This document shows, piece after piece, positions 1-15,863 of a stretch of DNA of 17,898 nucleotides (the stretch's first letter is position 1; each line of letters starts with the position of its first letter). The notes below the pieces were generated by a model. The model searched no databases. It was not told the DNA's origin and saw only the letters and a list, made by a program, of their open reading frames with translations. Made by a program: the position numbers and the translations under genes. This DNA is from a virus (taxonomy: Duplodnaviria > Heunggongvirae > Uroviricota > Caudoviricetes): positions 1 to 17,898 of IMG/VR virus record IMGVR_UViG_648276670_000009. One strand, written 5' to 3'.

Positions 1-401
<401 letters not shown>

Positions 402-541
402 TCGATTACTGTTTTTGTAAACGCACCGCCATTATATCTGCCGCGAAGGTACGCCATTGCAAACGCAAGGATTGCCCCGATGCCTTGTTCCTTTGCCGCG
501 AGAATGGCGGCTAACAGGTCATGTTTTTCTGGCATCTTCAT
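402..541 (-). pseudogene. S: Holin S (lambda S105/S107-like), 5' fragment of ~47 codons truncated by the IS insertion
   Basis: ORF 329..541 (-) begins [47 protein letters not shown], which I recall as the lambda S N-terminus; after codon 47 the sequence diverges into IS sequence. Confidence 0.8.
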
Positions 542-1077
542 GTCTTACCCCCAATAAGGGGATTTGCTCTATTTAATTAGGAATAAGGTCGATTACTGAT
601 AGAACAAATCCAGGCTACTGTGTTTAGTAATCAGATTTGTTCGTGACCGATATGCACGGGCAAAACGGCAGGAGGTTGTTAGCGCAACCTCATGCCACCC
701 GCTTTCACGAAGGTCATGTGTAGAAGGCCGCAGCATAACTATCACTGATGAATCCAGGATAGCCAGTGGCTACGGCCAAGTTTGGGTTGTGGCGGTCGGT
801 GCTGAACTCCGACTTAATGACGATAGGCGTGTACCGACGCCTCGTTTTACTTCCTCCGCTTTCACGGCTTCACCCTAGACCAGCTTTACGAAATCCTCGT
901 AAACCTAACCGCGGCAGATATGACCGGCACGGTGTGCCATATCACGGACCGGCGGGTGTCTCGTTCACCTGATTAACGCATCAGCCTGCGTATTCACCAC
1001 AACGATAAGAGCACTGCGCGGCACCTTTCACCAATTCCGCGAGGTCTGCGGGTTCAATGCTCTTACCTGTTGTGCAA

Positions 1078-1118
1078 ACAAAAAAGCCACCGTTGCAACT
1101 TAAGAGTCACTAACGGCA
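1078..1118 (-). terminator. tR'-like intrinsic terminator just downstream of the late promoter
   Basis: Minus-strand GCTGCCGTTAG...AACGGTGGC hairpin (9-bp stem with two G-U pairs) followed by TTTTTTGTTT; lies ~10-45 nt downstream of the putative PR' start. Confidence 0.5.
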
Positions 1119-1130
1119 GCTTACCCTCTA

Positions 1131-1160
1131 ATTATGGCTAAATGGCTAATTGCATGTCAA
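1131..1160 (-). promoter_or_regulatory. Late promoter PR'-like (Q-utilisation region expected here)
   Basis: Minus strand TTGACA (1160..1155), 18-nt spacer, CATAAT (1136..1131); the -35 overlaps the last codons of Q and the -10 sits just after the Q stop. Position corresponds to lambda PR'. Confidence 0.5.
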
Positions 1161-1656
1161 GGTTTTTAACAGCAACATGCTTAACTTTCTCAACACGTTT
1201 ACGCATTTTGAAAGCATTTTGCATTGGCTGGTATAAAACAAATAATGACGCCTTCAGGATGTCGTCAATTTCGTTTCTACAGGTTGCCAGTGAAGGTTTT
1301 CTCCATCCCTCGCCACCACGTCCACACATCTTGCGTGGCTTTGCAGTCGCGTGATAGTAGGATGCAATTGCTCGCTTAGATGAACCATGAGCGTAGTAGC
1401 TGAGGAGGATGCCAAAGGCTTTCTTGTCAATGTACATGACGGAATCGACGACCTGAGAAATCAACATTCCATCATCATCATTACACATTGGCCTTGTCAT
1501 AACTCTTCCCGGCTCTACGCTCTCCATGAACTTCGCTATTACGCTGCTCATGCGCTTTTCCAGGCGACCTGAATAAACCCATGCGCCCCACAGTTCAAGC
1601 CAGCCATTCAGCCAATCGTGCTGCTCTTTGGTGAGGTTTAGTTCTCTTATGCCCAT
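1138..1656 (-). CDS. Q: Late-gene antiterminator Q (non-lambda Q type)
   Basis: 172-aa ORF in the Q position (after ninI, before PR'/tR' and S). Sequence is unlike lambda Q; the family assignment rests on position plus vague recall of Q21/933W-type Q proteins. Confidence 0.55.
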
Positions 1657-2318
1657 GCGCCTTCTCCCTGTACCTGAATCAATGTGAGGTTTCCGCAGAA
1701 CACCGCGCCGGTATCGATATACATCTGGTTGGCAAATTTGAGTGGTTTCACTGCTGGCGTATGACCAAAGATGAACGTGTCCGCTCCTTTGATTTCTTTC
1801 ACGATCCCGTCTTGTGAGTTGCTGATTCGTTCGCGGTTCCAGATTACCTGCTGATGATCAACTGGCTTTCCAAATTCGTATTCGTCACAAGGATAATCGG
1901 CGTGGCAGATGACATATTTTTTATCTTTGCTCACCAGTTCGATGATTAGCGGAAGTTCATCTGCTTTATGGGCAAGAGCTTTAGCCAGAATTTCTTTGTC
2001 GTAATCGAGATTAAAGAACCAGCCACCGCCATTAAGCTGCCAGTGATTAACGTTTCCACGCTCTGATAAGCCATCAATCATCATGTGCTCATGGTTTCCA
2101 CGTACAGCTCTGAACCAGGGGAATGTGATTAATTCCAGGCATTCGACGTTCTCTGTACCGCGATCAACCAAATCGCCCACTGAGATAAGCAGGTCTTTTT
2201 TGGTGTCGAATACTATCGTCTCCAGTTTTTTCATCAGGTTCGTGTAGCATCCGTGCAGATCGCCAACTACCCAAATATTTCGGTATTTGCTGCCATCAAT
2301 TTTTTCGTAATAGCGCAT
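1647..2318 (-). CDS. ninI: NinI Ser/Thr protein phosphatase (lambda PPase-like)
   Basis: From [25 protein letters not shown]...GNHE, the calcineurin-like phosphoesterase motifs GDLHG, GDLVDRG, GNHE are present and the sequence is near-identical to recalled lambda orf221. Start chosen at the MRYYEK ATG (2318) with GGAG 8 nt upstream; the upstream in-frame extension overlaps ninH. Confidence 0.85.
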
Positions 2319-2502
2319 CTCTTTCACTCCATCCGCGATGAACCATGAGAACGTCGTTGACGATGGCGTGCATTTTCCCGTCTTTATCATCAACGTATTT
2401 TCTGACCGTACCGCGACTACATTTCAGTCTGCGTGCTACTTCTGTCTGGTTTCCGTATGCTTCAACGAGCATGTCTGGAATGGTTTTTACTGAGAACGTC
2501 AT
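2296..2502 (-). CDS. ninH: NinH
   Basis: 68-aa [40 protein letters not shown]..., recalled as lambda NinH; start overlaps the ninG stop (ATGA). Confidence 0.75.
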
Positions 2503-3110
2503 GCGGCCTCACTTCTGCTATTTCGCAGGTCTTTGAGTTTCTGCTGATACTCCGCCTTGATGGCCCTGCACTCTTCGACAGTCCAGCGATGGCGGTTATG
2601 GTTTGATTCGATTTCGTCTACTGCTTCCTGCCCGATGCGATTAATCAGTTCGACGCGATACGGAACGAGATTTCCGCTTTTGTGCTGGTTGCACACCACG
2701 CATTGCTTGTGAATATTGCGTTCATCAAATCGGAGTTGAGGTTCCGCAGCAGTTGTCCGGTAATGTCCGGCATCCCACTGAGCAGACGTGAGCGTTCCGC
2801 ACGAGATACATGGTAAGTCGCGGTCTCTTTCTCTGATGAAGGCGTTTACGGCTTGTTGGGCTTGTTTAATCCAGTAACTGCGGGGCTTTAAGGCGAGTTT
2901 TCGAATCTTAAGTTTATCTTTCTGTTTCTGCTCCTCTCGTCGTCGTTTCTTCTCTGCTGCTTTTTCCGCTTTTTCGCGTTCTTTGCTTCGTCGTTCGAGT
3001 GCTATCTTGGTTCCACACTCTGGAGAGCACCACCACTGATTAGCGAATGCAGGGTGAAACCATTCCCGACATTCATCGTTTTTACATCGTCTTCGCGCTG
3101 GTTTAGCCAT
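2499..3110 (-). CDS. ninG: NinG/Rap recombination-promoting structure-specific endonuclease
   Basis: 203-aa [25 protein letters not shown]...; Cys/His-rich, lysine-rich segment; matches recalled lambda NinG (204 aa) and its position. Confidence 0.8.
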
Positions 3111-3279
3111 CGTCTTCTTCCTCGTACATTGAGCTATTCGGATCGCTCATCAGTTCTGCGCAGCAGTGCTCACACACGTGAACTTCCAGCACATGCAGCT
3201 TCTGACCGCAGTTAGCGCACGTTAAAGCCCGCTCGACGCTTTCTTTCTGGTATTGAATGGATTGTGATGGGCTAAGCAT
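3103..3279 (-). CDS. ninF: NinF
   Basis: 58-aa ORF not in the ORF track (below its size cut-off): [58 protein letters not shown]; start overlaps the upstream stop (TAATG), stop overlaps the ninG start. Recalled as lambda NinF-like. Confidence 0.65.
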
Positions 3280-3644
3280 TATTGGATTCTCTGCATCATG
3301 AGAAAGACAATCATGGCGGCGCGGAGGGGATTTTCATGTATAGCTCGCTTAGATTTACAGTAGGCCACACCGCGTGCACCCCACTCGTCTTCATCGAGAT
3401 TGATAATGCTAATCCTGTATTTTTCAATAATCGGCCATGCGTCTGCTGGGTTTGCGCATGGGTTAAAGGATCCGCGCTCAACTTCTACTTCAACTGCGTC
3501 TCCGTTTACAATGTCTCCCTCAAATGAGACAAACACCATATCGCCATTCTCACCTTCTTTGTAATCCGGTGATCCGTTATGAATGGCTTCGAATACCGCC
3601 ACGTTAATTTCAAAATCACTTAACTGTGAATAATCCATTGTCAT
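3279..3644 (-). CDS. Nin-region protein, NinX-like (unknown function)
   Basis: ORF 3279..3680 (-); start placed at the ATG at 3644, which overlaps the upstream ninE-like stop (ATGA), giving [24 protein letters not shown]... Family name is a guess from position in P22-type nin regions. Confidence 0.5.
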
Positions 3645-3817
3645 TTCCTCGCACGATATCTTAGCCACCGGATATCCCACAGGTGAGCTGTGTAATTGAA
3701 GGTTTTTACGTCAGATTCTTTTGGGATTGGCTTGCGTTTATTTCTGGAGCGTTTCGTTGGAAGGTATTTGCAGTTTTCGCAGATTATGTCGGTGATACTT
3801 CGTCGCTGTCGTCTCAT
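3641..3817 (-). CDS. NinE-like small nin-region protein
   Basis: 58-aa [58 protein letters not shown]; start overlaps the ninB stop. Recalled as lambda/P22 NinE (possibly NinD) family. Confidence 0.6.
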
Positions 3818-4254
3818 GCCGCCCTGTCTCCCCATCGCGCTTTCCATTCGAGAGCCAGTCGCGCTTCGTCTGACCACTTAACGCCACGCTCTGTACCGAA
3901 TGCCTGTATAAGCTCTAATAGCTCCGCAAATTCGCTTACACGCATCCTGCTGGTTGACTGGCCTATTACCACAAAGCCATTCCCGGCAAGGTTAGGAACA
4001 ACGTCCTGCTGCTTTAATGCTGCGGTAAACACACACTTCCAGCTTTCTGCATCCAGCCAGCGACCATGCCATTCAACCTGACGAGAGACGTCACCTAAGC
4101 AGGCCCATAGCTTCCTGTTTTGGTCTAAGCTGCGGTTGCGTTCCTGAATGGTTACTACGATTGGTTTGGTTGGGTCTGGAAGGATTTGCTGTACTGCGTG
4201 AATAGCGTTCTGCTGATGTGCTGGAGATCGAATTTCAAAGGTTAGTTTTTTCAT
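3814..4254 (-). CDS. ninB: NinB recombination protein (lambda Orf family)
   Basis: From [56 protein letters not shown]... near-identical to recalled lambda NinB (146 aa). Start at ATG 4254. Confidence 0.85.
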
Positions 4255-4270
4255 GACTTCCCTCTCCCCC

Positions 4271-4301
4271 AAATAAAAAGGCCTGCGATTACCAGCAGGC
4301 C
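4271..4301 (-). terminator. tR2-like intrinsic terminator between replication genes and the nin region
   Basis: Minus-strand hairpin GGCCTGC(loop 8 nt)GCAGGCC followed by TTTTTATTT; located between the helicase stop (4328) and the ninB start (4254), the position of lambda tR2. Confidence 0.6.
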
Positions 4302-4327
4302 TGTTATTAGCTCAGTGATGTAGATGG

Positions 4328-5704
4328 TCATACGTCAGCCCCTTGTGCATATCGTCTGCCACGTGCAGCGGGTGCATTTGATGTTGTGCAAATCTGTCTG
4401 GCTTCATCCTGGTCACATGCAACAAAGTGTCCGTTGCAGAACCGCTGGTAAACCGTACCAAGCGAGCCAAAACGGTTTTTCGTCACAATGATTTCAGCAA
4501 ATGGCGCGGCGCTACTGTTCTCGTCATATACCGCTTCCCGATAGAGCATGATGATTGAGTCTGCGTCCTGTTCAATGCTTCCTGAATCACGCAAATCTGC
4601 GTTTGTCGGGCGTTTATTTGGTCGCTTCTCAACATCGCGCGAAAGCTGACTTAGGGAGATAACTGGCGTTTTCAGGTCTTTCGCCATCGCCTTCAGGCTT
4701 CCGGAGATGTGAGCAATTGCGAGGTCGTTGCGGTCTGCTTTCGGCTTCTCAATCAGGCCAAGATAATCCGCCATGATGAGTGACAGGTTTGGATTTTCCT
4801 GTTTGTGCCGTTCTGCGATTGAGCGTATTTCTTCGACCGATAACCGCGAGGCATCGACTACCCATACATCCAAATCTGCAAGCTGACTCATGCCGTTAGC
4901 AACACGCGCCCAGCCTTCGTCATCCATCGATGCAGGATTTCGCAGTACGCTAACCGACATCCTCCCGGCGTTGGCAATGCTTCGCTCTGCAATCTGCAAT
5001 GCGCTCATTTCCATTGAGAAAATCAATACCCCGCGCCGGACGTCAGAACCAGGAATAACGCGGCTTGCAACGCCTTCGGCAATCTTCAGCGCCAGTTCGG
5101 TTTTCCCCATACCAGGACGAGCAGCGATTATCACAAGGTCTTCTGCGTTCATCCCTCCGGTGATAGCGTCAAGTTCTTCGATTCCGGTCTTCAGGGTATC
5201 TGACTCTTCTCCGTTCCTCAGACGCCTGTCAAGCGTGTCAGTGTAGTCGGTGATGATTTCCCCTAACCGTACAGGTTTAACCTCGTCACGTGGCTTTCTG
5301 ATGGCTGAAAGACGCTTTACAAGCTCATCCATCGCCTGACTCGATGTATCGATGGTTCCGCTCTGAATTGGTTCACGCATTTCATCCATGATTTCCAGCA
5401 CCAGACGGCGGTGATAGTTATCCGCGACCATTCCGGCATATCCCTTCAGGTTTGCGGCACTCGGGCAGTTTTTGCTGGTCATCAGGATTGACGTGAAATG
5501 CTCCTCTCCGCACGCCTCGGCAACCATCAGCGCATCGATTAGGTTTCTGTTTCTCGCCTGCTTGCGGATAACCTCGAAGGCTTTCCGGTAGAGCGGAATT
5601 GAAAACGCTTCCGGCTCCAGCGTTGCCAGAACGTCGCTGGCGGTTGGTGTTAATCCACCAATCAGCAGGCCACCGATAACGCTCGCTTCGATATCCTGTC
5701 TCAT
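4328..5704 (-). CDS. DnaB-family replicative helicase (P22 gp12-like)
   Basis: 458 aa; Walker [13 protein letters not shown], Walker B-like [11 protein letters not shown]-terminal domain resembling DnaB ([15 protein letters not shown]); start overlaps the stop of the upstream O-like gene. Confidence 0.8.
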
Positions 5705-6648
5705 GCAATCCCCCTGTCTGCAAACTTCCCTTCCCGTACTCCCGTTAACGAATCTTCCCTCAGCAGGTAATCAAAATCTGCCGTCCAGCCCGTGTCGTTG
5801 TCTCCGAAGTAAAACGGCTTGGCCTGATGCACAAACGCCCTGACATACGCTCTGAAACCGTCCACGTTTGGCGTTTTCAGTTGCGGGATGATTTTCTTCA
5901 GGCGGCGTTTGCGTTTCTCGTTGACCGCAACAGCATGTGGAAGTCTGTCACCGACTTCGGTGTTGTAGGCGTTCAGGAAGGATTCGTAGTCGATTCGTTC
6001 TGCCTTGCGACGTTCAGGTTTAACCTGCCCATCGCCTCCCCCATTGGGGGGTAGGGGGGTATTATTTATATTCTTGTTAATACCTTCTTGTTCATGATGT
6101 GCGGTTGTTTGTGCGGCTTCATGTGCGCTTTCATGTGTGGCATGTACGCTGAAAGCCGCGCCATTACTGGCTTCATCATGTGCGGCATCATGTGCGGTTG
6201 TTTGTGCGGCTTCATGTGCGGGTGAATTGTCCATTTTTTGAGCATATTCATGGTAATTTGTGATGGTGATCACACGACCTTTTTGCTTCTCTCCATCAAT
6301 GGAGATCATCCCCTCTTTCACAAAAACCTGAAGCATCCGCTCAACCTGATCGCGGCTTGCTGGCTTGCCATGCCTGTCGCATAACTGAAGACCTAAATCA
6401 GCTGCTGTCACAACCAGTTGACCGGGTTGCAGATGCCATTCATGACCTTTGAAATTCGCTTTGTATGGCTTTCTGGCGGCATTCAGGAGAAGGTTTTCCC
6501 ACAGGGTGCGAAGATAAACATCTTTCGCCCATGACTGTTTCAGAATGCTCCGGTACAACGGAATGTAACCAGTTTTCTGGTTCTCCATCCTGTTGCTCCT
6601 GCGCTCGTGTGCGGCGCTGAAATCGTAGATTTTTGCTGTATTGCTCAT
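5701..6648 (-). CDS. Replication initiator (lambda O / P22 gp18-like) with internal iteron-encoded linker
   Basis: 315 aa; N-terminus [10 protein letters not shown] resembles lambda O MTNTAKILNF; central repetitive segment [18 protein letters not shown]...[13 protein letters not shown] is encoded by the direct repeats at 6066..6235; sits upstream of the helicase as in P22 18-12. Confidence 0.7.
6066..6235. repeat. Putative replication origin iterons inside the initiator gene
   Basis: Repeated TCATGTGCGG / CATGTGCG(G/C/T)-type units, with a duplicated ~40-nt block (catcatgtgcggttgtttgtgcggcttcatgtgcg). In lambda, ori iterons also lie within O. Confidence 0.6.
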
Positions 6649-6650
6649 AA

Positions 6651-6923
6651 CTACCTGCCTTGACGAAAGACCTTAAGAACATCGTTAAACTGACTTACGG
6701 ATATGTCTTCTTTGAGCAGCTTTTCCAGAAATGCGTTTGGAATGAACGTATATCCCTCCTCTTTTGGTAGAGACGGGAGCAACGCCCTCGCCTCAGCCTT
6801 CAGAAGCTCAGTTCTGGCAACTTTCACAAAAGAGATTTGAGTTCTTTCATCAATGGAACGAAGGAAGCGCAAACGCTTAGCTTCTTTGTGTGTATCAGGT
6901 GGATTAAAGCCTTTGTTTCGCAT
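6651..6923 (-). CDS. Hypothetical protein (90 aa) between cII and the initiator gene
   Basis: In the long ORF 6651..7235 only the part from the ATG at 6923 (MRNKGFNPPDTHKE...) lies downstream of cII; GAGGT sits 7 nt upstream of it. No recognised family. Confidence 0.45.
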   Translation of the reverse strand: MRNKGFNPPDTHKEAKRLRFLRSIDERTQISFVKVARTELLKAEARALLPSLPKEEGYTFIPNAFLEKLLKEDISVSQFNDVLKVFRQGR

Positions 6924-6934
6924 ATAATTACCTC

Positions 6935-7002
6935 GTTGGATGTTGTTAAAATTCCATTTGTATTTGATCAGAACGCTCGGTCTTGCACACCGGGCGTTTT
7001 TT
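6935..7002 (+). ncRNA. OOP-like antisense RNA overlapping the cII 3' end
   Basis: Plus-strand TATAAT at 6923..6928 and, ~65 nt downstream, a hairpin CGCTCGGT(loop)ACCGGGCG followed by TTTTTTATT (6974..7002) inside the 3' end of cII, the arrangement of lambda oop. Ends are approximate. Confidence 0.45.
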
Positions 7003-7242
7003 ATTGGTGAGAATCGAAGCAACTTGTCGTGCCAATCGAGCCATGTCGTCGTCGACGACGCCCCATTCAAGAACAGCAAGCAGCATTGAGAACTTTGGAA
7101 TCCAGTCCCTCTTCCACCTGCTGATCTGAGACTTATCAACGCCAACAGCTTCCGCTGTCTTCTCAGTTCCAAGCATTGCGATTTTGTTAAGCAACGCACT
7201 CTCGATTCGTAGAGCCTCGTTGCGTTTGTTTGCACGAACCAT
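6946..7242 (-). CDS. cII: Transcriptional activator CII
   Basis: From MVRANKRNEALRIESALLNKIAMLGTEKTAEAVGVDKSQISRWKRDWIPKFSMLLAVLEWGVVDDDMARLARQV..., near-identical to recalled lambda CII. The ORF-track extension upstream of this Met is not used. Confidence 0.9.
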   Translation of the reverse strand: MVRANKRNEALRIESALLNKIAMLGTEKTAEAVGVDKSQISRWKRDWIPKFSMLLAVLEWGVVDDDMARLARQVASILTNKKRPVCKTERSDQIQMEF

Positions 7243-7321
7243 ATGTAAGTATTTCCTTAGATAACAATTGATTGAATGTATGCAAATAAATGCACACACC
7301 ATAGGTGTGGTTTAATTTGAT

Positions 7322-7353
7322 GCCCTTTTTCAGGGCTGGGATGTGTAAGAGCG
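7322..7353 (-). promoter_or_regulatory. nutR (boxA + boxB) N-utilisation site
   Basis: Minus strand reads CGCTCTTACA (boxA) then GCCCTGAAAAAGGGC (boxB hairpin), between cro and cII. Confidence 0.8.
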
Positions 7354-7361
7354 GGAATGTC

Positions 7362-7577
7362 TTAAGCGGCTTTGTGTTCCGGCGGGAACACGTCATCAAG
7401 ACTGACTTTTGCGCCTAACTTGTTTAGGCATGCAACAAGAGCGCGGCATGTTTTAAGGTCTGGGAAGCGACGACCAGATTCCCAATGCCCAATAGCTCCC
7501 TGTGTGCATCCAACCGCCTTAGCAAGTGTTGTTTGAGAGATATTCAGTGACTCTCGATATTTTCGTAGGTTGCTCAT
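7362..7577 (-). CDS. cro: Cro-like repressor (XRE-type HTH, non-lambda specificity)
   Basis: Start at the internal ATG 7577 (MSNLRKYRESLNISQTTLAKAVGCTQGAIGHWESG...), preceded by GGAGGG; divergent from cI across an operator region; an HTH similar to the N-terminal domain of the adjacent cI. Confidence 0.75.
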   Translation of the reverse strand: MSNLRKYRESLNISQTTLAKAVGCTQGAIGHWESGRRFPDLKTCRALVACLNKLGAKVSLDDVFPPEHKAA

Positions 7578-7688
7578 ATGCCCTCCATAGTAACCATGAG
7601 ACAATAATACGATATGTACTTTTGGAATGCAAACAAAAAATACATCTTGTGCATGGATGGTTTTAGTACAGAGCGTAATAATAAGGAT
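7578..7688. promoter_or_regulatory. OR-like divergent promoter/operator region (PR toward cro, PRM toward cI)
   Basis: On the minus strand, TTGCAT (7632..7627), 17-nt spacer, TATTAT (7609..7604) upstream of the cro leader; several GTAC / AATAC-containing partial palindromes are candidate operator half-sites. Operator boundaries are not resolved. Confidence 0.55.
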
Positions 7689-8348
7689 ATGAAAATGAAA
7701 TGGTATGAACTGGCTAGATCCAGAATGAAAGAGCTCGGCATAACTCAAGAGAAGTTAGCTGAAGAGCTTGGTATGACGCAGGGTGGAATTGGTCACTGGT
7801 TGCGCGGATCTCGTCATCCATCTCTTGACGAGATTGGTGTGGTGTTTAAATACCTTGGTATTGATAACGTCTCATTCAACCACGACGGTACATTTTCACC
7901 TGTTGGCGAATACTCATCTGCCCCCGTTAAAAAACAATATGAGTACCCTGTTTTTTCTCATGTTCAGGCCGGGATGTTCTCGCCTGAGCTTAGAACCTTT
8001 ACCAAAGGTGATGCGGAGAGATGGGTCAGCACAACCAAAAAAGCCAGTGATTGTGCGTTTTGGCTTGAAGTTGAAGGTAATTCCATGACCGCGCCAACAG
8101 GATCCAAGCCAAGCTTTCCTGACGGGATGTTAATTCTCGTTGACCCTGAGCAGGCTGTTGAGCCAGGTGATTTCTGCATAGCCAGACTTGGTGGTGACGA
8201 GTTTACCTTCAAGAAACTGATCAGGGATAGCGGTCAGGTGTTCCTACAGCCACTAAACCCGCAATATCCAATGATTCCATGCAATGATAGCTGTTCCGTA
8301 GTAGGGAAAGTTATCGCCAGCCAGTGGCCTGAAGAGACATTTAGTTAA
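7689..8348 (+). CDS. cI: CI repressor: lambda-like C-terminal S24/LexA-type autocleavage domain fused to a divergent N-terminal HTH domain
   Basis: C-terminal ~135 aa ([39 protein letters not shown]...[15 protein letters not shown]) near-identical to recalled lambda CI; the N-terminal ~90 aa is unlike lambda. Start could be 7689 or 7695 (MKMKW / MKW); the track ORF starts further upstream at 7614. Confidence 0.85.
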
Positions 8349-8380
8349 CAGCCTCACCACTCTAAAACACACAACAATAA

Positions 8381-8409
8381 CCCGACCTTAGCGTCGGGTT
8401 TTCTTTTTC
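8381..8409 (+). terminator. Intrinsic terminator downstream of cI
   Basis: CCCGAC(loop CTTAGC)GTCGGG hairpin followed by TTTTCTTTTT, 33 nt after the cI stop. No rex-like genes lie between cI and pL. Confidence 0.6.
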
Positions 8410-8473
8410 CAAAATATAAACCCATTAAATACAAAGTGTTATAAAAAACTAATTATATTTAGAACATTTTGTA

Positions 8474-8502
8474 TTGACTCGATAAAGTACAAATCGTACT
8501 AT
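8474..8502 (+). promoter_or_regulatory. pL-like early leftward promoter (with OL operators upstream and overlapping)
   Basis: TTGACT (8474..8479), 17-nt spacer, TACTAT (8497..8502), followed by ATCAGCAGGACGCACT as in the recalled lambda pL transcript start; AATACAAA(A/G)TGT motif in both orientations at ~8427..8472 and an AGTAC-N5-GTACT palindrome at 8487..8501 are candidate operators. Confidence 0.7.
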
Positions 8503-8542
8503 TTAGCCATCAGCAGGACGCACTAACCGCCATGAAGGTGAG

Positions 8543-8572
8543 GCTCTTAAAAATTTAGCCCTGAAGAAGGGC
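8543..8572 (+). promoter_or_regulatory. nutL (boxA + boxB)
   Basis: GCTCTTAA (boxA) followed by GCCCTGAAGAAGGGC (boxB stem-loop), upstream of N. Confidence 0.8.
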
Positions 8573-8682
8573 AGCATTCAAAGCAGAAAGCTTTGAGTAG
8601 CGCGAAATGCAGCTGCAAGACAGCAACCGTGGAGATAAGCATCACGGCGCGTTACTCAAAGCTAACTGACAGGAGAATCCAG

Positions 8683-9009
8683 ATGGATGCACAAACACGC
8701 CGCCGCGAACGTCGCGCAGAGAAACAGGCTCAATGGAAAGCAGCAAATCCCCTGTTGGTTGGGGTAAGCGCAAAACCAGTTAACCGCCCTATTCTCTCGC
8801 TGAATCGCAAACCGAAATCACGAGTAGAAAGCGCACTGAATCCGATAGACCTTACGGTGCTGGCTGAATACCACGAACAGATTGAAAGCAACCTGCAACG
8901 TATTGAGCGCAAGAATCAGCGCACATGGTACAGCAAGCCACGCAGTGAAATGGGTGTGACTTGTGTTGGTCGCCAGAAAATGAAATTAGGCAGCAAGCCA
9001 CTTATTTGA
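8683..9009 (+). CDS. N: Antitermination protein N
   Basis: From MDAQTRRRERRAEKQAQWKAANPLLVGVSAKPVNRPILSLNRKPKSRVESALNPIDLTVLAEYH..., near-identical to recalled lambda N (Arg-rich boxB-binding motif); AGGAG RBS before ATG 8683. The track ORF start at 8593 is not used. Confidence 0.9.
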   Translation: MDAQTRRRERRAEKQAQWKAANPLLVGVSAKPVNRPILSLNRKPKSRVESALNPIDLTVLAEYHEQIESNLQRIERKNQRTWYSKPRSEMGVTCVGRQKMKLGSKPLI

Positions 9010-9018
9010 GGTGATGGA

Positions 9019-9651
9019 ATGAGCAATAGAATTGATGGAGAGATTATCAGGGGCGTAATTAATGACCCTCGCCTTTTTCCAGGAATAAAGCGCTCAAGAG
9101 CAGGAGCATCTCAGCTCTTTGGTGAGCGCATAGTCAAAGGCGGGAAGCTTATACAAGAATGCGACTTCGAGCTAACTCCTCCAGTAAAAAGCTGGTACTC
9201 AAAGGAAATTGATGGGGTTTGGCATTGGGTTGAGGGTTGCGATCACTGCAATGGTTCTCCTCAGGACTGGGCGTATTGCAGATGCGAAAAGCATGATGTT
9301 TGTGTTGATTGCGGAATTGATAGAGAGCACGCGTCAACGTCACAAACCATAGCTGGAATGGGTGCTGTCTGGGGATGTCGTGGTGGATGGCGATGCAATG
9401 ATTGCCAAGAGAAAATTAATCAGGAACGCCTAGCAGCAGCTGAGGCAAGAATTATTCCTGACGATGAATATGATGAGCTGGATTTTTGGCGCAGAGATGA
9501 GGCTCGCTGCCCATGGTGTAAGGCTGAAATATCCACCGATGAATCATACGACGCCTGCGAAGAAGAGCATACATGCTATGAATGCGAGCGTAAGTTCAAG
9601 CTTACAGCTGAGCATTCAGTATCGTGGACAACGATTCGCTCAATCAAATAG
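9019..9651 (+). CDS. Hypothetical Cys-rich protein (multiple CxxC pairs; probable zinc-binding)
   Basis: 210 aa with CDHC, CRC, CVDC, C-x5-CNDC, CPWC, C-x5-CYEC motifs; GAGGTG RBS; first gene after N, in the slot occupied by ral/sieB in lambda. No recognised family. Confidence 0.6.
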   Translation: MSNRIDGEIIRGVINDPRLFPGIKRSRAGASQLFGERIVKGGKLIQECDFELTPPVKSWYSKEIDGVWHWVEGCDHCNGSPQDWAYCRCEKHDVCVDCGIDREHASTSQTIAGMGAVWGCRGGWRCNDCQEKINQERLAAAEARIIPDDEYDELDFWRRDEARCPWCKAEISTDESYDACEEEHTCYECERKFKLTAEHSVSWTTIRSIK

Positions 9652-9696
9652 GCCGCATAGTCGGCCTTCTTTTGGCATAAACAACATGGGGTAAAA

Positions 9697-10023
9697 ATGA
9701 AAGTTTTAATGGTTTATGAAAATGTTCCAGAGTCGACTGAAATCTATATTTTTGATGCCAATGAAGATGAAGTTAACGATTTAAAATTGTCTCACGGCAA
9801 TTACACAAATGCTAATTGTGATGAAAGCATCGAAAAAGCACTATCACGTGTTCTTGTCAGAATCAGCGATCCAGAACATTGTGATAATGATTGGCTTTCT
9901 TATTGTGGAGCGGTAAAAACTGATGCAGGAAAATGGAGTAAAAGTAAAGTTGATAACTCAACTCCAATCATTATGAAAGATAGTGATATTGAAATGGTAA
10001 TAATAACCGGAATGATTATGTAG
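9697..10023 (+). CDS. Hypothetical small acidic protein (108 aa), AT-rich moron-like gene
   Basis: ATG ORF with visibly lower GC than its neighbours; ~20 Asp/Glu versus ~10 Lys/Arg by my count; followed by a 9-bp-stem hairpin (10033..10060) and an intrinsic terminator. No recognised family. Confidence 0.5.
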   Translation: MKVLMVYENVPESTEIYIFDANEDEVNDLKLSHGNYTNANCDESIEKALSRVLVRISDPEHCDNDWLSYCGAVKTDAGKWSKSKVDNSTPIIMKDSDIEMVIITGMIM

Positions 10024-10129
10024 GCTGCGAATAAGCACTGTGTATTCATTCAAACGAGTGAATACACGGAGCAATGTCGCTCGTAACTAAACAGGAGCCG
10101 ACTTGTTCTGATTATTGGAAATCTTCTTT

Positions 10130-10156
10130 GCCCTCCTATGTGAGGGCAATTTTTTT
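10130..10156 (+). terminator. Intrinsic terminator (tL-type) upstream of the 322-aa gene
   Basis: GCCCTC(loop CTATGT)GAGGGC followed by AATTTTTTT. Confidence 0.6.
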
Positions 10157-10168
10157 GATGGAGGATAT

Positions 10169-11137
10169 ATGAGTGAAGTAACAGACTTAGTTGTTATTGA
10201 AAAAGCAAATGCAATGACTGTATTTCAGTCTGCAGACCAGATTGAAGAAATCCTTCAAAAGGTTGAACGTGAAGTTATGTCCTTTGTGCCTGATATCACA
10301 ACGGCAAAGGGCAGAAAGGAGATCGCTTCTCTGGCGTATAAAGTTGCGCAGACGAAAACATATCTCGATGGTCTTGGCAAAGACCTTGTTGCTGAACTGA
10401 AGGAAATTCCAAAGCTAATTGATGCTAACCGCAAGACAGTGCGTGATCGCCTTGATGAGCTGAAAGCCAAGGCGCGCCAGCCTCTTACTGATTATGAGGA
10501 AGAACAGGCGCGGATTAAAGCCGAAGAAGAAGCTAAGGCAGCAGCTGAAGCTCTCGCAAAGCAAATTGAGTCTGACCATGAAATAGCTATTTTGATGGAT
10601 CGCGAATTTGACCGCCAAAGAGAAGAGGCAAGACTCAAAGCGGAGCAGGAAAAGCGAGAGCATGAAGAACGCTTAAAAAAAGAAGCTGAAGAGAAAGCCA
10701 GAGCTGAAGCCGAAGAAAAGGCAAAAGCCGAAATTGAAGCAGCAGCAAGGCGAGAAGCAGAAGCTAAGGCCGCAGCGGAACGTGCAGAGCGTGAACGCAT
10801 TGAAGCCGAGCAACGAGCACAGCGCGAAGCAAAAGAGGCAGCAGAACGAGCTGAAAGAGAAAAGCAGGCGGCAATTGAAGCAGAACGCCGAAAAGCACAG
10901 GAGGAGGCTGAACGAATCCGGCGCGAGGCTGAAGCAAAAGAGCAAGCCAGAATAGCAGAAGAAAAAAGAATCAAGGAAGAGGAAGAGTGTAGAGCAAAGG
11001 ATAAAGCTCACCGGAAAGAAGTAAATAACAAAATACTTGCTGACCTTATCAAGGTTGGCGCATCAGAAGATGTTGCTAAAAATATCATAACAGCCATCGT
11101 AAAAGGCGAAGTATTCGCAACAAAAATAACCTACTAA
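10169..11137 (+). CDS. Hypothetical protein with a long charged Glu/Ala/Lys/Arg-rich alpha-helical (coiled-coil-like) central region
   Basis: 322 aa from ATG 10169 (GGAGG RBS 5 nt upstream); the track ORF starts earlier at 10115. Central ~150 aa is low-complexity EEAKAAAEALAKQ...AEEKAKAEIEAAARREAEAKAAAERAERERIEAE; the globular N-terminus and C-terminus are not recognised. Confidence 0.65.
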   Translation: MSEVTDLVVIEKANAMTVFQSADQIEEILQKVEREVMSFVPDITTAKGRKEIASLAYKVAQTKTYLDGLGKDLVAELKEIPKLIDANRKTVRDRLDELKAKARQPLTDYEEEQARIKAEEEAKAAAEALAKQIESDHEIAILMDREFDRQREEARLKAEQEKREHEERLKKEAEEKARAEAEEKAKAEIEAAARREAEAKAAAERAERERIEAEQRAQREAKEAAERAEREKQAAIEAERRKAQEEAERIRREAEAKEQARIAEEKRIKEEEECRAKDKAHRKEVNNKILADLIKVGASEDVAKNIITAIVKGEVFATKITY

Positions 11138-11161
11138 TAAAACCAACATAAGGAACCACCC

Positions 11162-11293
11162 ATGATTTACGCAATCGCGGGAGGCGCTCGCATGGGTGCC
11201 TTCCAACTAAATGAATCTTTACTTGAACGAATCACCCGTAAATTACGTGACGGATGGAAAAGAGTTGAGGTCTTATTATGCGCAATGAAATAG
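11162..11293 (+). CDS. cIII: CIII-like protease (FtsH) inhibitor, divergent C-terminus
   Basis: 43-aa ORF (below the track cut-off) MIYAIAGGARMGAFQLNESLLERITRKLRDGWKRVEVLLCAMK; core ESLLERITRKLRDGWKR matches recalled lambda CIII. Confidence 0.7.
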   Translation: MIYAIAGGARMGAFQLNESLLERITRKLRDGWKRVEVLLCAMK

Positions 11294-11430
11294 CCATCAA
11301 TCACCAGATGCTTCGTGCTGCACAGAACAAAGCAGTAATAGCCAGATTTATTGGTGATTCCAAAATGTGGCTTGAAGCAAATAAAGCGATGAAATCAGCT
11401 ATCAACCTTCCATGGTATCGCAGGAAATGA
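11278..11430 (+). CDS. kil: Kil-like host cell-division inhibitor
   Basis: 50-aa ORF MRNEIAINHQMLRAAQNKAVIARFIGDSKMWLEANKAMKSAINLPWYRRK; resembles recalled lambda Kil (…TFIGDEKMF…); overlaps the cIII stop; position matches lambda cIII-kil. Confidence 0.55.
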   Translation: MRNEIAINHQMLRAAQNKAVIARFIGDSKMWLEANKAMKSAINLPWYRRK

Positions 11431-11504
11431 GTTTTACAGATAACTGGTCAGACGAAGAATTCATTCGTCAGATGAAAGAATTAATCGGTAACGAAGGAGA
11501 TATT

Positions 11505-11675
11505 CATGTCACTTGCAACCACAGTGAAGGAGAGCAAGTTACAGAGACGCATGTACACGCAGCAGGCGTTAATGTATCGCCAGAAGGGAGATCGTGAAGG
11601 TGTTCGCGTATTTTTAAATGCGGCAAAGACTGAAGTATTAAATCAGCGTTATTTCCTTGGGCCATGTCCATTCTG
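11505..11675 (+). CDS. Hypothetical small protein (56 aa) upstream of erf (Arf-like position)
   Basis: ATG 11505 preceded by AGGAG at 7-nt spacing; MSLATTVKESKLQRRMYTQQALMYRQKGDREGVRVFLNAAKTEVLNQRYFLGPCPF. An alternative overlapping frame (track ORF 11412..11597, or ATG 11427 coupled to the kil stop) cannot be excluded. Confidence 0.45.
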
Positions 11676-11686
11676 AGAACAAACAT

Positions 11687-12292
11687 ATGAGCAAAGAATT
11701 TTACGCAAAACTGGCAGCTATTCAGGAGAACTTGAACGCGCCAAAGAATCAGTACAACTCATTCGGTAAATATAAATACAGAAGCTGCGAAGACATTCTT
11801 GAAGGCGTTAAGCCGTTACTGAATGGTCTGTTTTTATCAATCAGCGATGAAGTTGTGTTGATTGGTGATCGGTATTACGTGAAAGCCACGGCAACTATTA
11901 CCGATGGCGAAAACAGTCATACGGCAACCGCTCTTGCACGAGAGGAAGAAAGCAAGAAAGGAATGGATTCTGCACAAGTTACGGGAGCTACAAGCTCTTA
12001 TGCACGCAAGTATTGCCTCAATGGTTTGTTCGGCATTGATGATGCGAAAGATGCAGATACCGACGAGCATAAACATCAGCAGAACGCAGCAGCAAAGCAA
12101 TCAAAACCATCACCTACACCTGAACAGGTTCTAAAAGCATTCACTGACGCAGCATTGCAGAAAAACACCGTAGAAGAGCTTAAACAGGCGTTCGCCAAAG
12201 CGTGGAAGATGCTCGAAGGCACACCTGAGCAGCACAAAGCGCAGGACGTTTACAACATCAGACGAGACGAATTAGAAGGAGCGGCTGCTTAA
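11687..12292 (+). CDS. erf: Erf-family single-strand annealing recombination protein (P22 Erf-like)
   Basis: From MSKEFYAKLAAIQENLNAPKNQYNSFGKYKYRSCEDILEGVKPLLNGLFLSISDEVVLIGDRYYVKATATITDGENSH..., closely matching recalled P22 Erf. The track ORF begins at a TTG at 11657; the ATG at 11687 is used. Confidence 0.85.
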   Translation: MSKEFYAKLAAIQENLNAPKNQYNSFGKYKYRSCEDILEGVKPLLNGLFLSISDEVVLIGDRYYVKATATITDGENSHTATALAREEESKKGMDSAQVTGATSSYARKYCLNGLFGIDDAKDADTDEHKHQQNAAAKQSKPSPTPEQVLKAFTDAALQKNTVEELKQAFAKAWKMLEGTPEQHKAQDVYNIRRDELEGAAA

Positions 12293-12675
12293 TGGCACAT
12301 TCGATTACTGTAAGACTAAACAAGCCCGCAAGAGAGTTTCAGGCCGGGGAAAATATCGGATTCAACATCCGTGCTGGCGTTCAGTATTACGATCGCCAGA
12401 CAAAAAAGAAAGAATGGACAAACTACAGCGCCGTTGTATTTGCCAAGCCGGGAGCGCAAGCGGATTACTACCGTAGTGTTCTTGTTGAAGGTGGCATTGT
12501 GGAAATTACCGGAGAAAACATCAGGGTTGATGTTTATCAGGGGCAAAATGGTCAATCAATCACTCTTGAATTACTGAATGCAAAGATTGGATTTGCAACT
12601 TCAGGAAACAGCCAACAGCAGCAAAGTAGTAACCAGCAGAACACTCCTGTATACGACGATTCCATCCCATTCTGA
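12292..12675 (+). CDS. Single-stranded-DNA-binding protein-like (acidic C-terminal tail ending DDSIPF)
   Basis: 127 aa; Gln/Ser-rich linker and terminal ...PVYDDSIPF resemble the SSB C-terminal protein-interaction tail (DDDIPF); start overlaps the erf stop (TAATG). Confidence 0.65.
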   Translation: MAHSITVRLNKPAREFQAGENIGFNIRAGVQYYDRQTKKKEWTNYSAVVFAKPGAQADYYRSVLVEGGIVEITGENIRVDVYQGQNGQSITLELLNAKIGFATSGNSQQQQSSNQQNTPVYDDSIPF

Positions 12676-12698
12676 TTTAGAAAAATAAGGATTTAATT

Positions 12699-12992
12699 AT
12701 GCCAGCGCCTCTGTATGGTGCGGATGACGCGCGCCGCTGTTCCGGCAATTCCGTATCGGAGGTGCTGGATAAATTCAGAAAAAACTACGACCGGATAATG
12801 TCGCTACCGCAGGAAACGAAAGAGGAAAAGGAATTTCGCCATTGTATATGGCTTGCAGAGAAAGAAGAGCGCGAGCGAATTTACCAGACATCAATCCGAC
12901 CATTCCGCAAAGCAACATATACCCACTTCCCTGAAATCGACCCGCGCCTGCGTAATTACCGCTCACGCTATGGCGCTATCAGTAATAACTGA
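12699..12992 (+). CDS. Hypothetical protein (97 aa)
   Basis: ATG ORF with AAGGA upstream; no recognised family. Confidence 0.5.
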
Positions 12993-13002
12993 GGAATTTA
13001 CC

Positions 13003-13170
13003 ATGAGAGGACTTGCATACAATCCCGGCATTCTTCCGGCAGAAATGATTATTCGCCAACGCGTAAAGCCAATGCCATCGAGAGAGGAATTGCTTAAGAG
13101 AAATTCTTTTCCATCAGTGAATCAAAACAAATATCTGAATGCGATGTGGCGCAAAGGAGGCAGCCAGTGA
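13003..13170 (+). CDS. Hypothetical protein (55 aa)
   Basis: ATG 13003 preceded by GAGGAA; lies in the frame of track ORF 12853..13170, whose upstream part overlaps the previous gene. Confidence 0.45.
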
Positions 13171-13811
13171 ATAACCGCTTTTACATGATGTGCTTGCGTG
13201 AAACTGTGGGTAATAACGCTTCATTCCATTGCCATAACGGCAATGGTTACAGTTCTAATATCGATCGCGCTCATGTTTACACGCTGGAAGAAGCCCAAAA
13301 AGCCTGGAATTGTGGTCGAGATATCGATCAGCCTGTTTGCGCTGATAGCGTGGATGCAATGGCAGTGTGGCACGTTGATTGCCAGTACATCCCTACAGAA
13401 AGCCTGATTGAGTCAGATTGCACTGCGTATGTGGCCTACAAAAAAGGTAGCTGGAACGGCAACGATGTTTACTGGCTTCAACACGGTGGATTGCCAACAG
13501 ATGACTTCAGTAAAGCGACCATCTTTAGCGTCGCCAACAAAAACGAACCAGGAATAGTTTGGTTGCCATTTTCCATTGCTGATGCAGCAAAGCGCAGGAC
13601 GTTCAATATCAATAACTTTAACCGCAGAACAATGGTTCAGGGCGCAGGTTTGGTCATGCCTGACTGGTTGAAAGAGCAGAACAGAAGAAAGAAGTCGCGA
13701 AGCGGGAAGGTGCGTTGGAATTGTCCGCATTGCGGAAAAATCTCCTGGCAGTACAGCCCATATGATTTTGAAGGCTGTAGTGATTACAACTGTGAAGGAT
13801 GGCGAGAATGA
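13167..13811 (+). CDS. Hypothetical protein (214 aa) with C-terminal Cys-rich zinc-ribbon-like motif
   Basis: GTG 13167 preceded by AAAGGAGG at 6-nt spacing and overlapping the upstream stop (the track ORF starts at 13146); C-terminus WNCPHCGK...CSDYNCEGW. No recognised family. Confidence 0.55.
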
Positions 13812-14295
13812 CAATTGACTATCAGTCACTGCGTGAGGCGGCAGAGAAAGCAACGTGGGGAGACTGGGACTCATATAAACACACCGTGGCGCACGTGGTT
13901 ATGAGGTCCGACTAAGTAGTCAGGCCATTGCGCAACACGTTCTGAAAAACAACGCTGAATTTATTGCTGCCTTTAATCCAAAGGTTGCTTTGGCACTACT
14001 GGATGAACGGGAAAGAAACCAGCAATACATCAAACGCCGCGACCAGGAGAACGAGGATATTGCGCTAACGGTAGGGAAGCTGCGCGTTGAGCTTGAAGCA
14101 GAAAAACAGCGGGCAAAAGTTCTATTTATGGAAAATGCTCGGCTTAAGTCAGGTATAGCCGGTCTGATACACCTCGGTATTCGATATGCAGATGTTGAGG
14201 TCATGAAAATTGCTGGAGATGCCCAGCTTTCTACCCCATGCACTGACAGCATCATAAACAGCATTGCAACAGGCATTCGCATCAAAGGAGAGTAA
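13799..14295 (+). pseudogene. ea22-like gene, disrupted (N-terminal 38-codon piece and C-terminal piece in different frames)
   Basis: ATG 13799 encodes [38 protein letters not shown] then stops at 13913..13915; a different frame continues open from ~13916 (...QAIAQHVLKNNAEFIAAFNPKVALALLDERERNQQYIKRRDQENEDIALTVGKLRVELEAE...) to 14295. Both pieces resemble recalled Ea22-family proteins. Confidence 0.5.
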
Positions 14296-14497
14296 TATGA
14301 GCAGGAATACGGGTTTGTAAAAGATAACGCTTGTGAAAATGCTGAATTTCGCGTCGTCTTCACAGCGATGCCAGAGTCTGTAGTGTCAGATGATGACCGT
14401 ACTCAAACATCGGGTTGAGTATTATCTTACTGTTTCTTTACATAAACATTGCTGATACCGTTTAGCTGAAACGACATACATTGCAAGGAGTTTATAA

Positions 14498-14779
14498 ATG
14501 AGTATCAATGAGTTAGAGTCTGAGCAAAAAGATTGGGCGTTATCAATGTTGTGCAGATCCGGTGTCTTGTCTCCATGCAGACATCACGAAGGTGTTTATG
14601 TAGATGAAGGTATAGATATAGAGTCGGCATACAAATATTCCATGAAGGTTTATAAGTCTAATGAAGACAAATCCCCATTCTGCAATGTGCGAGAAATGAC
14701 TGATACCGTGCAAAATTATTATCACGAGTACGGTGGAAACGATACTTGCCCTCTCTGTACAAAATATATAGATGATTAA
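14498..14779 (+). CDS. Hypothetical small Cys-containing protein (93 aa), AT-rich moron-like gene
   Basis: ATG with AAGGAG at 8-nt spacing; low GC; five Cys including CPLC; bracketed by a ~200-bp non-coding leader and an intrinsic terminator. Confidence 0.55.
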   Translation: MSINELESEQKDWALSMLCRSGVLSPCRHHEGVYVDEGIDIESAYKYSMKVYKSNEDKSPFCNVREMTDTVQNYYHEYGGNDTCPLCTKYIDD

Positions 14780-14797
14780 ACCAAATATTACATAACA

Positions 14798-14826
14798 ATC
14801 CTCGCACTCGCGGGGATTTCTTTTAT
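14798..14826 (+). terminator. Intrinsic terminator after the 93-aa gene
   Basis: ATCCTCGC(loop ACTC)GCGGGGAT followed by TTCTTTTAT. Confidence 0.55.
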
Positions 14827-14837
14827 ATGGGGATAAT

Positions 14838-15638
14838 ATGACCATCCACTTTCACGGCAGCCCAATATGGGGTGATGAGCATGCCCCTACAGATATGCTG
14901 ATTAAAGTCCTTTACCGTGATGGTGGGGCTTTTGTTTCATTTGCCAGACCAGAGCAGATGAAAAAGATTGCCATGTTCCCTTGTGATATACGCCTTGATA
15001 ACGGCGCTTTTAGCGACTGGATGAAAGCATTAAAGAAAGGCACTCCGGTAGACTGGAGTAAGAGACGAGCAAAATTCTACGACTTTGTTGGGAAGTGGTT
15101 CAGCAGAATTGAATGGTTTCTTATACCTGACGTTATCGAAGGGACAGAGGCAGAAAACGACGAGCAGATTGAGTTGGTTCCTGATTGGCTAAAATCAAAA
15201 GCGGTTCCGGTCTGGCATACCGACGAATCAATTGAACGTCTTTTACGCCTTTCTGGCAAATTTGAATGGGTGGCGATTGGATGCTGCGGCCCACACAGGC
15301 ACATACGCTCTAAATGGTGGGAACAGAGAATGGATGAAGTTTTCACTGAGCTTTATATCAATCGTAATTTGAAAGTGAAAATTCATGGTCTTCGAATGCT
15401 CGACGTGAGAGTTCTTGGTATGTATCCGTTCGCCAGTGCGGATTCTACTAATGTTGCTGTTAACGTACCGAAGACAGAGAAGCGATTTCCTGAGATTACC
15501 GACAAACTGGCACGTACAGCTGTACTTCGCTCAGCTATTGAAAAGGTGCACCCGCCATCGATATCAGCATGGGTAGACAGAAAGATGAGAGAGCCGGCGC
15601 AAGCCGGTTTTTTATTTGAATTCACCGACGCCGCTTAA
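14838..15638 (+). CDS. Hypothetical protein (266 aa), conserved-looking but unassigned
   Basis: Long ATG ORF in the accessory region between ea22 and the excisionase gene. Motifs noted: YRDGGAFVSF, GCCGPHRH. No confident family assignment. Confidence 0.6.
   Translation: MTIHFHGSPIWGDEHAPTDMLIKVLYRDGGAFVSFARPEQMKKIAMFPCDIRLDNGAFSDWMKALKKGTPVDWSKRRAKFYDFVGKWFSRIEWFLIPDVIEGTEAENDEQIELVPDWLKSKAVPVWHTDESIERLLRLSGKFEWVAIGCCGPHRHIRSKWWEQRMDEVFTELYINRNLKVKIHGLRMLDVRVLGMYPFASADSTNVAVNVPKTEKRFPEITDKLARTAVLRSAIEKVHPPSISAWVDRKMREPAQAGFLFEFTDAA
15593..15616 (+). terminator. Terminator-like hairpin (GCAA tetraloop) with U-tract inside the 3' end of the 266-aa CDS
   Basis: GCCGGC-GCAA-GCCGGT followed by TTTTTTATTT, ending 22 nt before the CDS stop. 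Confidence 0.35.
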
Positions 15639-15695
15639 TGCGGATTTCTTTTATCTGAACTCGCTACGGCGGGTTTTGTTTTATGGAGATGATAA

Positions 15696-15863
15696 ATGCA
15701 CTTCCGAGTCACAGGAGAATGGAATGGAGAGCCATTCAACAGAGTTATCGAAGCAGAGGACATCAACGACTGCTATGACCACTGGATGTTGTGGGCGCAG
15801 ATAGCACATGCAGACGTAACCAATATTCGAATTGAAGAACTGAAAGAACACCAAGCCGCCTGA
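15696..15863 (+). CDS. Hypothetical small protein (55 aa), commonly seen near xis in enterobacterial prophages
   Basis: ATG 15696 with GGAGATG upstream; MHFRVTGEWNGEPFNRVIEAEDINDCYDHWMLWAQIAHADVTNIRIEELKEHQAA; below the track cut-off. Confidence 0.5.
   Translation: MHFRVTGEWNGEPFNRVIEAEDINDCYDHWMLWAQIAHADVTNIRIEELKEHQAA

Follow-up and report, generated by a model that had tools for sequence, protein, structure and literature searches.

Positions 7362–8348 of the 17,898-nucleotide viral sequence IMGVR_UViG_648276670_000009 (positions 1 to 17,898 of that IMG/VR record; the whole stretch is referred to here as the window) extend exactly from the stop codon of a leftwards-transcribed cro gene to the stop codon of a rightwards-transcribed cI repressor gene. 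The window corresponds to a lambdoid prophage early region, in the orientation opposite to that of the lambda map. The locus is very probably an immunity region in its entirety (PL/OL - cI - OR/PRM/PR - cro), carried by a lambdoid E. coli prophage of the P22-like or CUS-3-like kind, with the immunity type of phage VT2-Sakai. On sequence comparison cI is a mosaic gene, and the specificity parts of the region–cro, the right operator region (OR) and the helix-turn-helix (HTH) domain of cI, and separately the left operator region (OL)–are non-lambda. The immunity type is an already known one, that of the Shiga toxin (Stx) phages VT2-Sakai (Sp5), Stx2 phage II, Stx1 phage (Morioka V526), Nil2, 2851, 1717, YYZ-2008, and the PA series.

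The DNA-binding components carry this assignment. Cro is 100% identical to Cro of VT2-Sakai, Stx2 phage II, Stx1 phage (Morioka), Nil2, and 2851, and the N-terminal 95 amino acids of cI are 94.7–95.8% identical to those of VT2-Sakai, the Stx1 phage and Stx2 phage II, Nil2, 1717, and the PA phages, with no difference from the Stx1 phage CI at the helix-turn-helix residues. The prophage has the same repressor DNA-binding domain, the same Cro, and the same operators (three in OR and three in OL) as the VT2-Sakai, Stx2 phage II, and Nil2 type, and full homoimmunity with VT2-Sakai is likely. The initial annotation had proposed a distinct immunity specificity combined with lambda-type SOS inducibility: the specificity parts are indeed non-lambda, and the Ala-Gly cleavage site and Ser/Lys dyad are intact, but the specificity is already known. 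It had also allowed that the N-terminal domain might prove to be that of a well-known immunity type, leaving the observation true but unremarkable, and this is how the Cro (100%) and cI N-terminal (95–96%) identities to the VT2-Sakai type are best described.

The cI gene is composed of two parts with different relationships to lambda. The non-lambda 5' part (7653–7937, rightwards), delimited by Pfam and alignments, codes for an HTH_3 DNA-binding domain (E = 8.7e-11, residues 23–70 of the 231-amino-acid form) and the start of the linker, and its N-terminal ~83–95 residues resemble those of lambda at no more than background level. The remainder (7938–8348) codes for a lambda-type linker and a Peptidase_S24 C-terminal domain (Pfam E = 1e-28; alignments to PDB entries 3bdn and 8gmu), and from YEYPVF to the end of the protein 133 of the 136 residues are those of lambda CI, the differences being lambda S139 to C, E217 to D, and G236 to S; by blastn the corresponding DNA (7938–8342) is 93.6% identical to lambda over 405 bp. 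In the 231-residue numbering the cleavage site is Ala106-Gly107 (lambda A111-G112), the nucleophile is Ser144 (S149), and the base is Lys187 (K192), and with an N-terminal HTH and a C-terminal Peptidase_S24 domain the protein has the features of an autocleaving S24 repressor of the LexA/CI type. The 133/136 identity with the cleavage and oligomerisation region of lambda CI suggests that self-cleavage would be stimulated by RecA*.

The cro gene (7577–7362, leftwards) codes for a 71-residue HTH_3/XRE-type protein, recognised by Pfam (E = 4.2e-12, with the domain covering the whole protein) and by protein comparison, that is unlike lambda Cro. It contains the motif G-C-TQG-A-IGHW-ES-G (GCTQGAIGHWESG), with a matching motif in the cI HTH, and the two HTH domains are 35% identical over 62 amino acids (BLASTP E = 6e-13); on this similarity they are paralogous, with almost the same recognition helix. 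The near lambda identity of the cI C-terminal domain, the departure of its HTH domain and of Cro from lambda, and the GxTQGxIGHWxxG-type motif common to both HTHs had all been put forward in the initial annotation, and each is borne out. Its further suggestion that CI and Cro recognise the same operators also appears likely, from the paralogous HTHs with nearly the same recognition helix and from the six matching sites lying in both regions that it had proposed for footprinting. The proteins do not belong to the 434 or P22 C2 types: in a PDB sequence search Cro matches P22 C2 with E ~0.009 and the 434 repressor with E ~0.25–0.3, and cI has no 434 or P22 match at E ≤0.01. The structurally characterised immunity types (lambda, 434, P22) offer only weak PDB sequence matches for the HTH parts, with the exception of PDB entry 28tn. 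This entry (chain A, 82 amino acids, 'lambda repressor-like protein') matches Cro residues 1–69 with E = 4.5e-17, far closer than the 434 or P22 proteins, and could be a structural template for this Cro family.

The recombination joint lies inside cI, as had been proposed. In a three-way DNA alignment of the window, lambda, and the Stx1 phage AP005153, sliding identity to lambda rises from ~35% to >93% within a few bases at 7933–7938, and the blastn segment starts at 7938. The position is just before the Tyr-Glu-Tyr-Pro codons (mature lambda Tyr101), in the interdomain linker and 10 residues upstream of the Ala-Gly site; because the joint is upstream of the cleavage site, the whole cleavage-site region and the oligomerisation domain are lambda-type, the DNA-binding domain being the one foreign part. 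The cI gene of the Stx1 phage has the same break point, and in the C-terminal-domain DNA the window, lambda, and the Stx1 phage are mutually ~92–94% identical. Since the Stx1 phage gene breaks at the same point, the joint is ancestral to the VT2-Sakai-type family and not recent in this prophage; judging from these alignments, it is common to all VT2-Sakai-type cI genes, an old and fixed feature of a widespread and already described repressor family.

The non-lambda DNA forms two patches, 7356–7937 (cro, OR, cI HTH) and 8407–8507 (OL/PL), which are exactly the immunity-specificity determinants. The lambda-like parts, located by blastn of the window against lambda positions 33,000–42,000, are the cI linker and C-terminal domain, the terminator, and everything outside the PL transcript start and the cro stop codon (89–96% DNA identity). 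The right joint (7355–7356) is 6 bp past the cro stop codon, as placed by pairwise alignment with lambda and the end of the blastn segment. At the left joint (8507–8508) blastn and alignment show lambda homology resuming at CATCAGCAGGACGCAC, which we take to be the start of the lambda PL transcript (PL +1). Three features of the region go beyond the initial annotation: OL/PL is also non-lambda, there is no rexA or rexB, and positions 8379–8400 retain the terminator found after rexB in lambda. By blastn and alignment against lambda, rexA and rexB are absent and only the terminator is left between cI and OL. It is a rightwards-acting intrinsic terminator with a compensatory change in its stem (the segment 8371–8406 is 88.9% identical to lambda).

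The initial annotation was also correct in describing the flanking cII, nutR, nutL, and N as lambda-like. To the right, the segment 6950–7355 containing cII, PRE, and nutR is 96.1% identical to lambda, with a lambda-type cII gene of 98 amino acids (6946–7242, leftwards; Pfam Phage_CII E = 3.8e-48), a PRE CII box with the lambda sequence (TTGC-N6-TTGC, 7220–7233) pointing towards cI, and a leftwards-oriented nutR (7322–7353) in which boxB GCCCTGAAAAAGGGC (7322–7336) and boxA CGCTCTTA (7346–7353) are both identical to lambda. To the left, the PL leader and nutL (8508–8595) are 94.3% identical to lambda, with an identical nutL boxB GCCCTGAAGAAGGGC (8558–8572, rightwards), and the segment 8657–8984 is 93.9% identical and contains the lambda-type N antiterminator gene (108 amino acids; 8683–9009, rightwards; Pfam N36 E = 1.5e-26). 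As an illustration of modular mosaicism in lambdoid phages the arrangement is of textbook clarity, each joint coinciding with a functional boundary (the linker between the two domains, the stop codon of cro, or PL +1).

Six predicted operators of 17 bp, with the pattern ARTACR-N3-YGT, are confined to the two intergenic regions and are orthologous to the sites annotated in AP005153 and to VT2-Sa OR1–3 and OL1–3 (PMC10742460 Table S1). OR1 (TAATACGATATGTACTT, 7605–7621), the orthologue of the published VT2-Sa OR1, overlaps the -10 of the predicted PR; OR2 (AAATACATCTTGTGCAT, 7638–7654) abuts the predicted PRM -35; and OR3 (TAGTACAGAGCGTAATA, 7664–7680) overlaps the PRM spacer and -10. On the other side of cI, OL3 (AAATACAAAGTGTTATA, 8427–8443) was assigned by pattern match and orthology, OL2 (TAGAACATTTTGTATTG, 8460–8476) overlaps the predicted PL -35, and OL1 (AAGTACAAATCGTACTA, 8485–8501) overlaps the predicted PL -10. 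Promoters were predicted by scanning for consensus elements. The predicted PR (7604–7633, leftwards) has a -35 TTTGCA (7633–7628), an 18-bp spacer, and a -10 TATTAT (7609–7604), and coincides with the site that AP005153 labels 'putative major rightward promoter'; a weak predicted PRM (7654–7682, rightwards; -35 TGGATG at 7654–7659, -10 AATAAT at 7677–7682) has the same placement in that annotation; and the predicted PL (8474–8502, rightwards) has a -35 TTGACT (8474–8479), a 17-bp spacer, and a -10 TACTAT (8497–8502). The OR2 and OR3 centres would be at about -43 and -17 of PRM; those of lambda are at about -42 and -19. Measured between centres, neighbouring operators are 33 and 26 bp apart in OR and 25 and 33 bp apart in OL, nearly the same as in the Stx1 phage (32/26 and 25/33 bp); in lambda the distances are 24 and 23 bp (OR) and 24 and 20 bp (OL).

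The start codon of cI is of interest in this context. RefSeq annotates it at ATG 7653 in the identical chromosome of E. coli CH4804, a position within OR2 and upstream of both OR3 and the predicted PRM -10. Two other candidates are ATG 7689, which aligns with the annotated start of phage L C2 and fits a leaderless lambda-like PRM mRNA, and ATG 7695, which the Shine-Dalgarno sequence AAGGA (7683–7687) precedes by 7 nt. The predicted PRM +1, at ~7689, would be the A of the ATG and give a leaderless mRNA as in lambda. Because the annotated start is inside OR2, the phage L C2 start aligns with 7689, and AAGGA precedes 7695, either of these appears a likelier start than 7653; the RefSeq and GenBank starts are probably 12–14 codons too far upstream, and those residues probably not part of the protein.

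Several points temper this reading of the region. The operators keep all conserved positions relative to the VT2-Sakai-type sites but have 1–3 substitutions each, mostly at central or edge bases, and the cI N-terminal part differs from that type at 4 of 95 residues. The pattern ARTACRNNNYGT has eight matches in the window, which are the six sites (two are symmetric and match on both strands), all within 7605–7680 and 8427–8501, with 0.74 matches expected in 17.9 kb and 0 of 200 shuffles reaching eight, but it was derived from the very sites that are counted and the statistic speaks to their clustering and exclusivity, not to an independent discovery. With operator spacings of 33/26 and 25/33 bp, cooperativity between OR1 and OR2 in the manner of lambda cannot simply be assumed. 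Finally, we infer operator occupancy, the promoter positions, the cI start codon, and homoimmunity itself from sequence.

A different account of the mosaic would make it a recent and private chimera, a new repressor whose C-terminal domain was acquired by recombination with lambda or a close relative. The abrupt break at 7933–7938 and the near-identity of the C-terminal domain protein are what such an event would leave, but the cI genes of the Stx1 phage and the VT2-Sakai type have the same break point, and this shared joint refutes it; moreover, the C-terminal-domain DNA, at 93.6% identity, is as diverged from lambda as the N, cII, and nut flanks, and the full mosaic is present in 776 complete E. 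coli genomes and >60 phage records. We give this account almost no credence. Nor is it at all probable that there was no recombination, and that the gene descended vertically from a lambda-like ancestor, its C-terminal domain being held by purifying selection as the N-terminal domain, Cro, and operators diverged rapidly to a new immunity. Immunity determinants are known to diversify, and S24 domains are conserved at 40–80% across lambdoid repressors, but the DNA changes in a step, from ~35% to >93% identity in ~6 bp with synonymous positions included, and Cro is of a different family than lambda Cro (HTH_3, with its best PDB relatives among the P22 C2 and 434-type domains). The N-terminal domain is also closer (~53%) to its counterparts in Salmonella phages L, ST64T, and epsilon34; the C-terminal domains of these repressors are not lambda-like, apart from the epsilon34 one, which has ~80% identity to that of lambda.

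A further concern is whether the switch is still functional, or is the remnant of a defective prophage. The window derives from a chromosomal prophage (it has a 100% match in E. coli CH4804), and the annotation of that chromosome marks two nearby genes as partial pseudogenes. However, cI, cro, cII, and N are intact, all six operators keep their conserved positions, and regions 98.6–99.1% identical are found in the isolated phages vB_EcoP-720R6, vB_EcoP-683R2, Dewey, Louie, and phi458, so that a dead switch is improbable. An intact immunity region of the VT2-Sakai type, with an old joint inside cI, is the reading that we prefer.

Based on homology with lambda, a mechanism for this region can be proposed. 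CI dimers would bind the 17-bp operators (half-site ~AGTACA) through the XRE-type HTH, blocking PR from OR1 and PL from OL1 and OL2; from OR2, beside the weak PRM -35, CI would probably activate PRM, with OR3 overlapping that promoter. Cro, a paralogous single-domain HTH protein, would bind the same sites in the lytic direction and shut off PRM. The lambda-type linker and S24 domain would provide dimerisation, dimer-dimer cooperativity, and RecA-stimulated self-cleavage at Ala-Gly, whereby the foreign HTH would be cut away from the lambda-type oligomerisation part, and since linker and S24 domain are lambda-identical, induction should be lambda-like. The lambda-type CII, N, and nut sites surround the module, and CII acting at PRE would establish repressor synthesis from a transcript antisense through the foreign cro.

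The near-identity of the linker and C-terminal domain in lambda CI and VT2-Sakai-type CIs raises the possibility that mixed dimers or cooperative oligomers could form in polylysogens, and such mixing could give partial cross-immunity. We consider it doubtful, taking the two ideas jointly, that the lambda-type C-terminal domain pairs other operators than in lambda (e.g. OR2 with OR3 and OL1 with OL2) and that repressors with different HTHs mix; a different pairing, given the 33-bp distances of OR1–OR2 and OL2–OL3, would change the logic of the switch.

The specificity segment (7362–7937) is present in 776 of 5426 complete E. coli genomes (~one in seven), including Nissle 1917 and O157:H7 strains, where the sequences are ~94% identical. 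The same number of complete genomes (776) hold at least 80% of 7300–8420, and since the counts are equal the HTH part practically always travels with the lambda-type C-terminal domain; comparison of these genome counts, made with no large metagenome protein search, gave no sign in complete E. coli genomes of a VT2-Sakai-type HTH joined to a non-lambda C-terminal domain. Klebsiella phage phiKp_30 (LC768498.2, 701–1087) was considered as a possible alternative joint and set aside, as it has no annotated cI gene and the arrangement resembles a deletion of cI and not another chimera. This sewage-isolated Lederbergvirus, with a reported Klebsiella host, has a Cro 98.6% identical to that in the window and a cI match limited to the first ~34 codons, and would seem to derive from the same immunity type by loss of cI, as a clear-plaque or virulent form.

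Elsewhere the window is similar to P22-like coliphages, among them CUS-3 and HK544, with 97% identity over at most 48% of its length. Within the O-like replication gene (5701–6648, leftwards) there are imperfect 12-bp tandem units (CATCATGTGCGG-like) at 6110–6221, in two arrays of ~2.7 and 4 copies. In the replication protein these units specify a repeat rich in His and Ala, and like those in lambda O they are probably the iterons of the origin. Between this gene and cII is an open reading frame (ORF) of 90 amino acids (6651–6923, leftwards), which the identical E. coli genome lists as a 'hypothetical protein'; lambda is without a gene here, and HK022 and HK97 have ORFs at the equivalent place (PMC3349717). 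Downstream of N, in the place of the lambda sieB-ral-ea10 region, are two rightwards-transcribed genes, the first (9019–9651) coding for a protein rich in Cys, to which the identical genome gives the annotation 'Nmad5 family putative nucleotide modification protein', and the second (10115–11137) for a highly charged Glu/Ala/Lys/Arg coiled-coil protein.

Compared with lambda itself, the region shares the linker from Tyr101, Ala111-Gly112, Ser149/Lys192, and the whole C-terminal domain (133/136 amino acids), together with the post-operon terminator, PL leader and nutL, N, nutR, cII/PRE, the OL-cI-OR-cro layout, and the placement of OR2 (~-43) and OR3 (~-17) relative to PRM. It differs in the DNA-binding domain, the fold family of Cro, operator sequence (TATCACCGC... 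in lambda and AGTACA... here), operator spacing, and the absence of rexA and rexB, and it is not of the lambda immunity type: the N-terminal domain has background similarity, Cro is an HTH_3 protein, and the operators are unrelated to TATCACCGC-type sites. In the laboratory hybrids lambda imm434 and lambda imm21 the early region is lambda-type except for the specificity cassette from PL to the end of cro, which has been exchanged. Unlike in those hybrids, here a lambda-type island (the cI linker and C-terminal domain, and the terminator) stays inside the cassette, and the non-lambda DNA is for this reason in two patches and not one.

Among the Salmonella phages, the C2 proteins of L and ST64T and the epsilon34 repressor have homologous N-terminal domains (~53–54% identity) with the same recognition helix, TQGAIGHW, and the proposed epsilon34 operator consensus WTACRAWWTGTAT resembles the sites described here; the level of identity is too low, on the sequences, for shared immunity to be assumed. 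The C-terminal domain of phage L C2 is not lambda-like, and that of the epsilon34 repressor is ~80% identical to lambda's according to the epsilon34 genome paper, where the relatives given for this family of N-terminal domains are L, VT2-Sa, and Nil2. In the literature searched, Nil2 figures as an unpublished record that serves solely for comparative trees, with nothing said of the mosaic. The Cro of ST64T is 69% identical throughout to that of the window. We note that the translation of phage L cro (X94331, 1678–1875) matches the window Cro for its first ~24 residues and then diverges completely, a pattern that points to a frameshift error in this old record.

The closest relatives are the VT2-Sakai-type Stx phages, with a mosaic cI having the same joint and a lambda-type C-terminal domain, and six orthologous 17-bp operators in the same order. 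The cro-cI DNA is ~92.5% identical, with 1 extra bp here between OR1 and OR2. The Stx phages have ~1.5 kb of extra ORFs between cI and OL, whereas in the window the terminator and OL follow cI directly; their cII and N have been annotated as resembling those of HK022 and HK97, whereas those here are lambda-like; and the backbone here is P22-like (CUS-3/HK544) and not that of an Stx phage. According to the account given in PMC10742460, Fattah et al. 2000 (Genes Genet Syst 75:223) described the VT2-Sakai CI as having a C-terminus like lambda and an N-terminus unlike it, and a 2022 survey places these repressors in 'Clade I' of the Stx-phage CIs, 61% identical overall to lambda CI. The observation is thus already known, since the VT2-Sakai type shares both joint and operators and Fattah et al. 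described the same pattern; beyond annotation it is of little importance, and the questions that it leaves are modest ones about a known system. What is gained is the placement of this prophage in the VT2-Sakai immunity group, which bears on superinfection immunity between commensal prophages and Stx phages.

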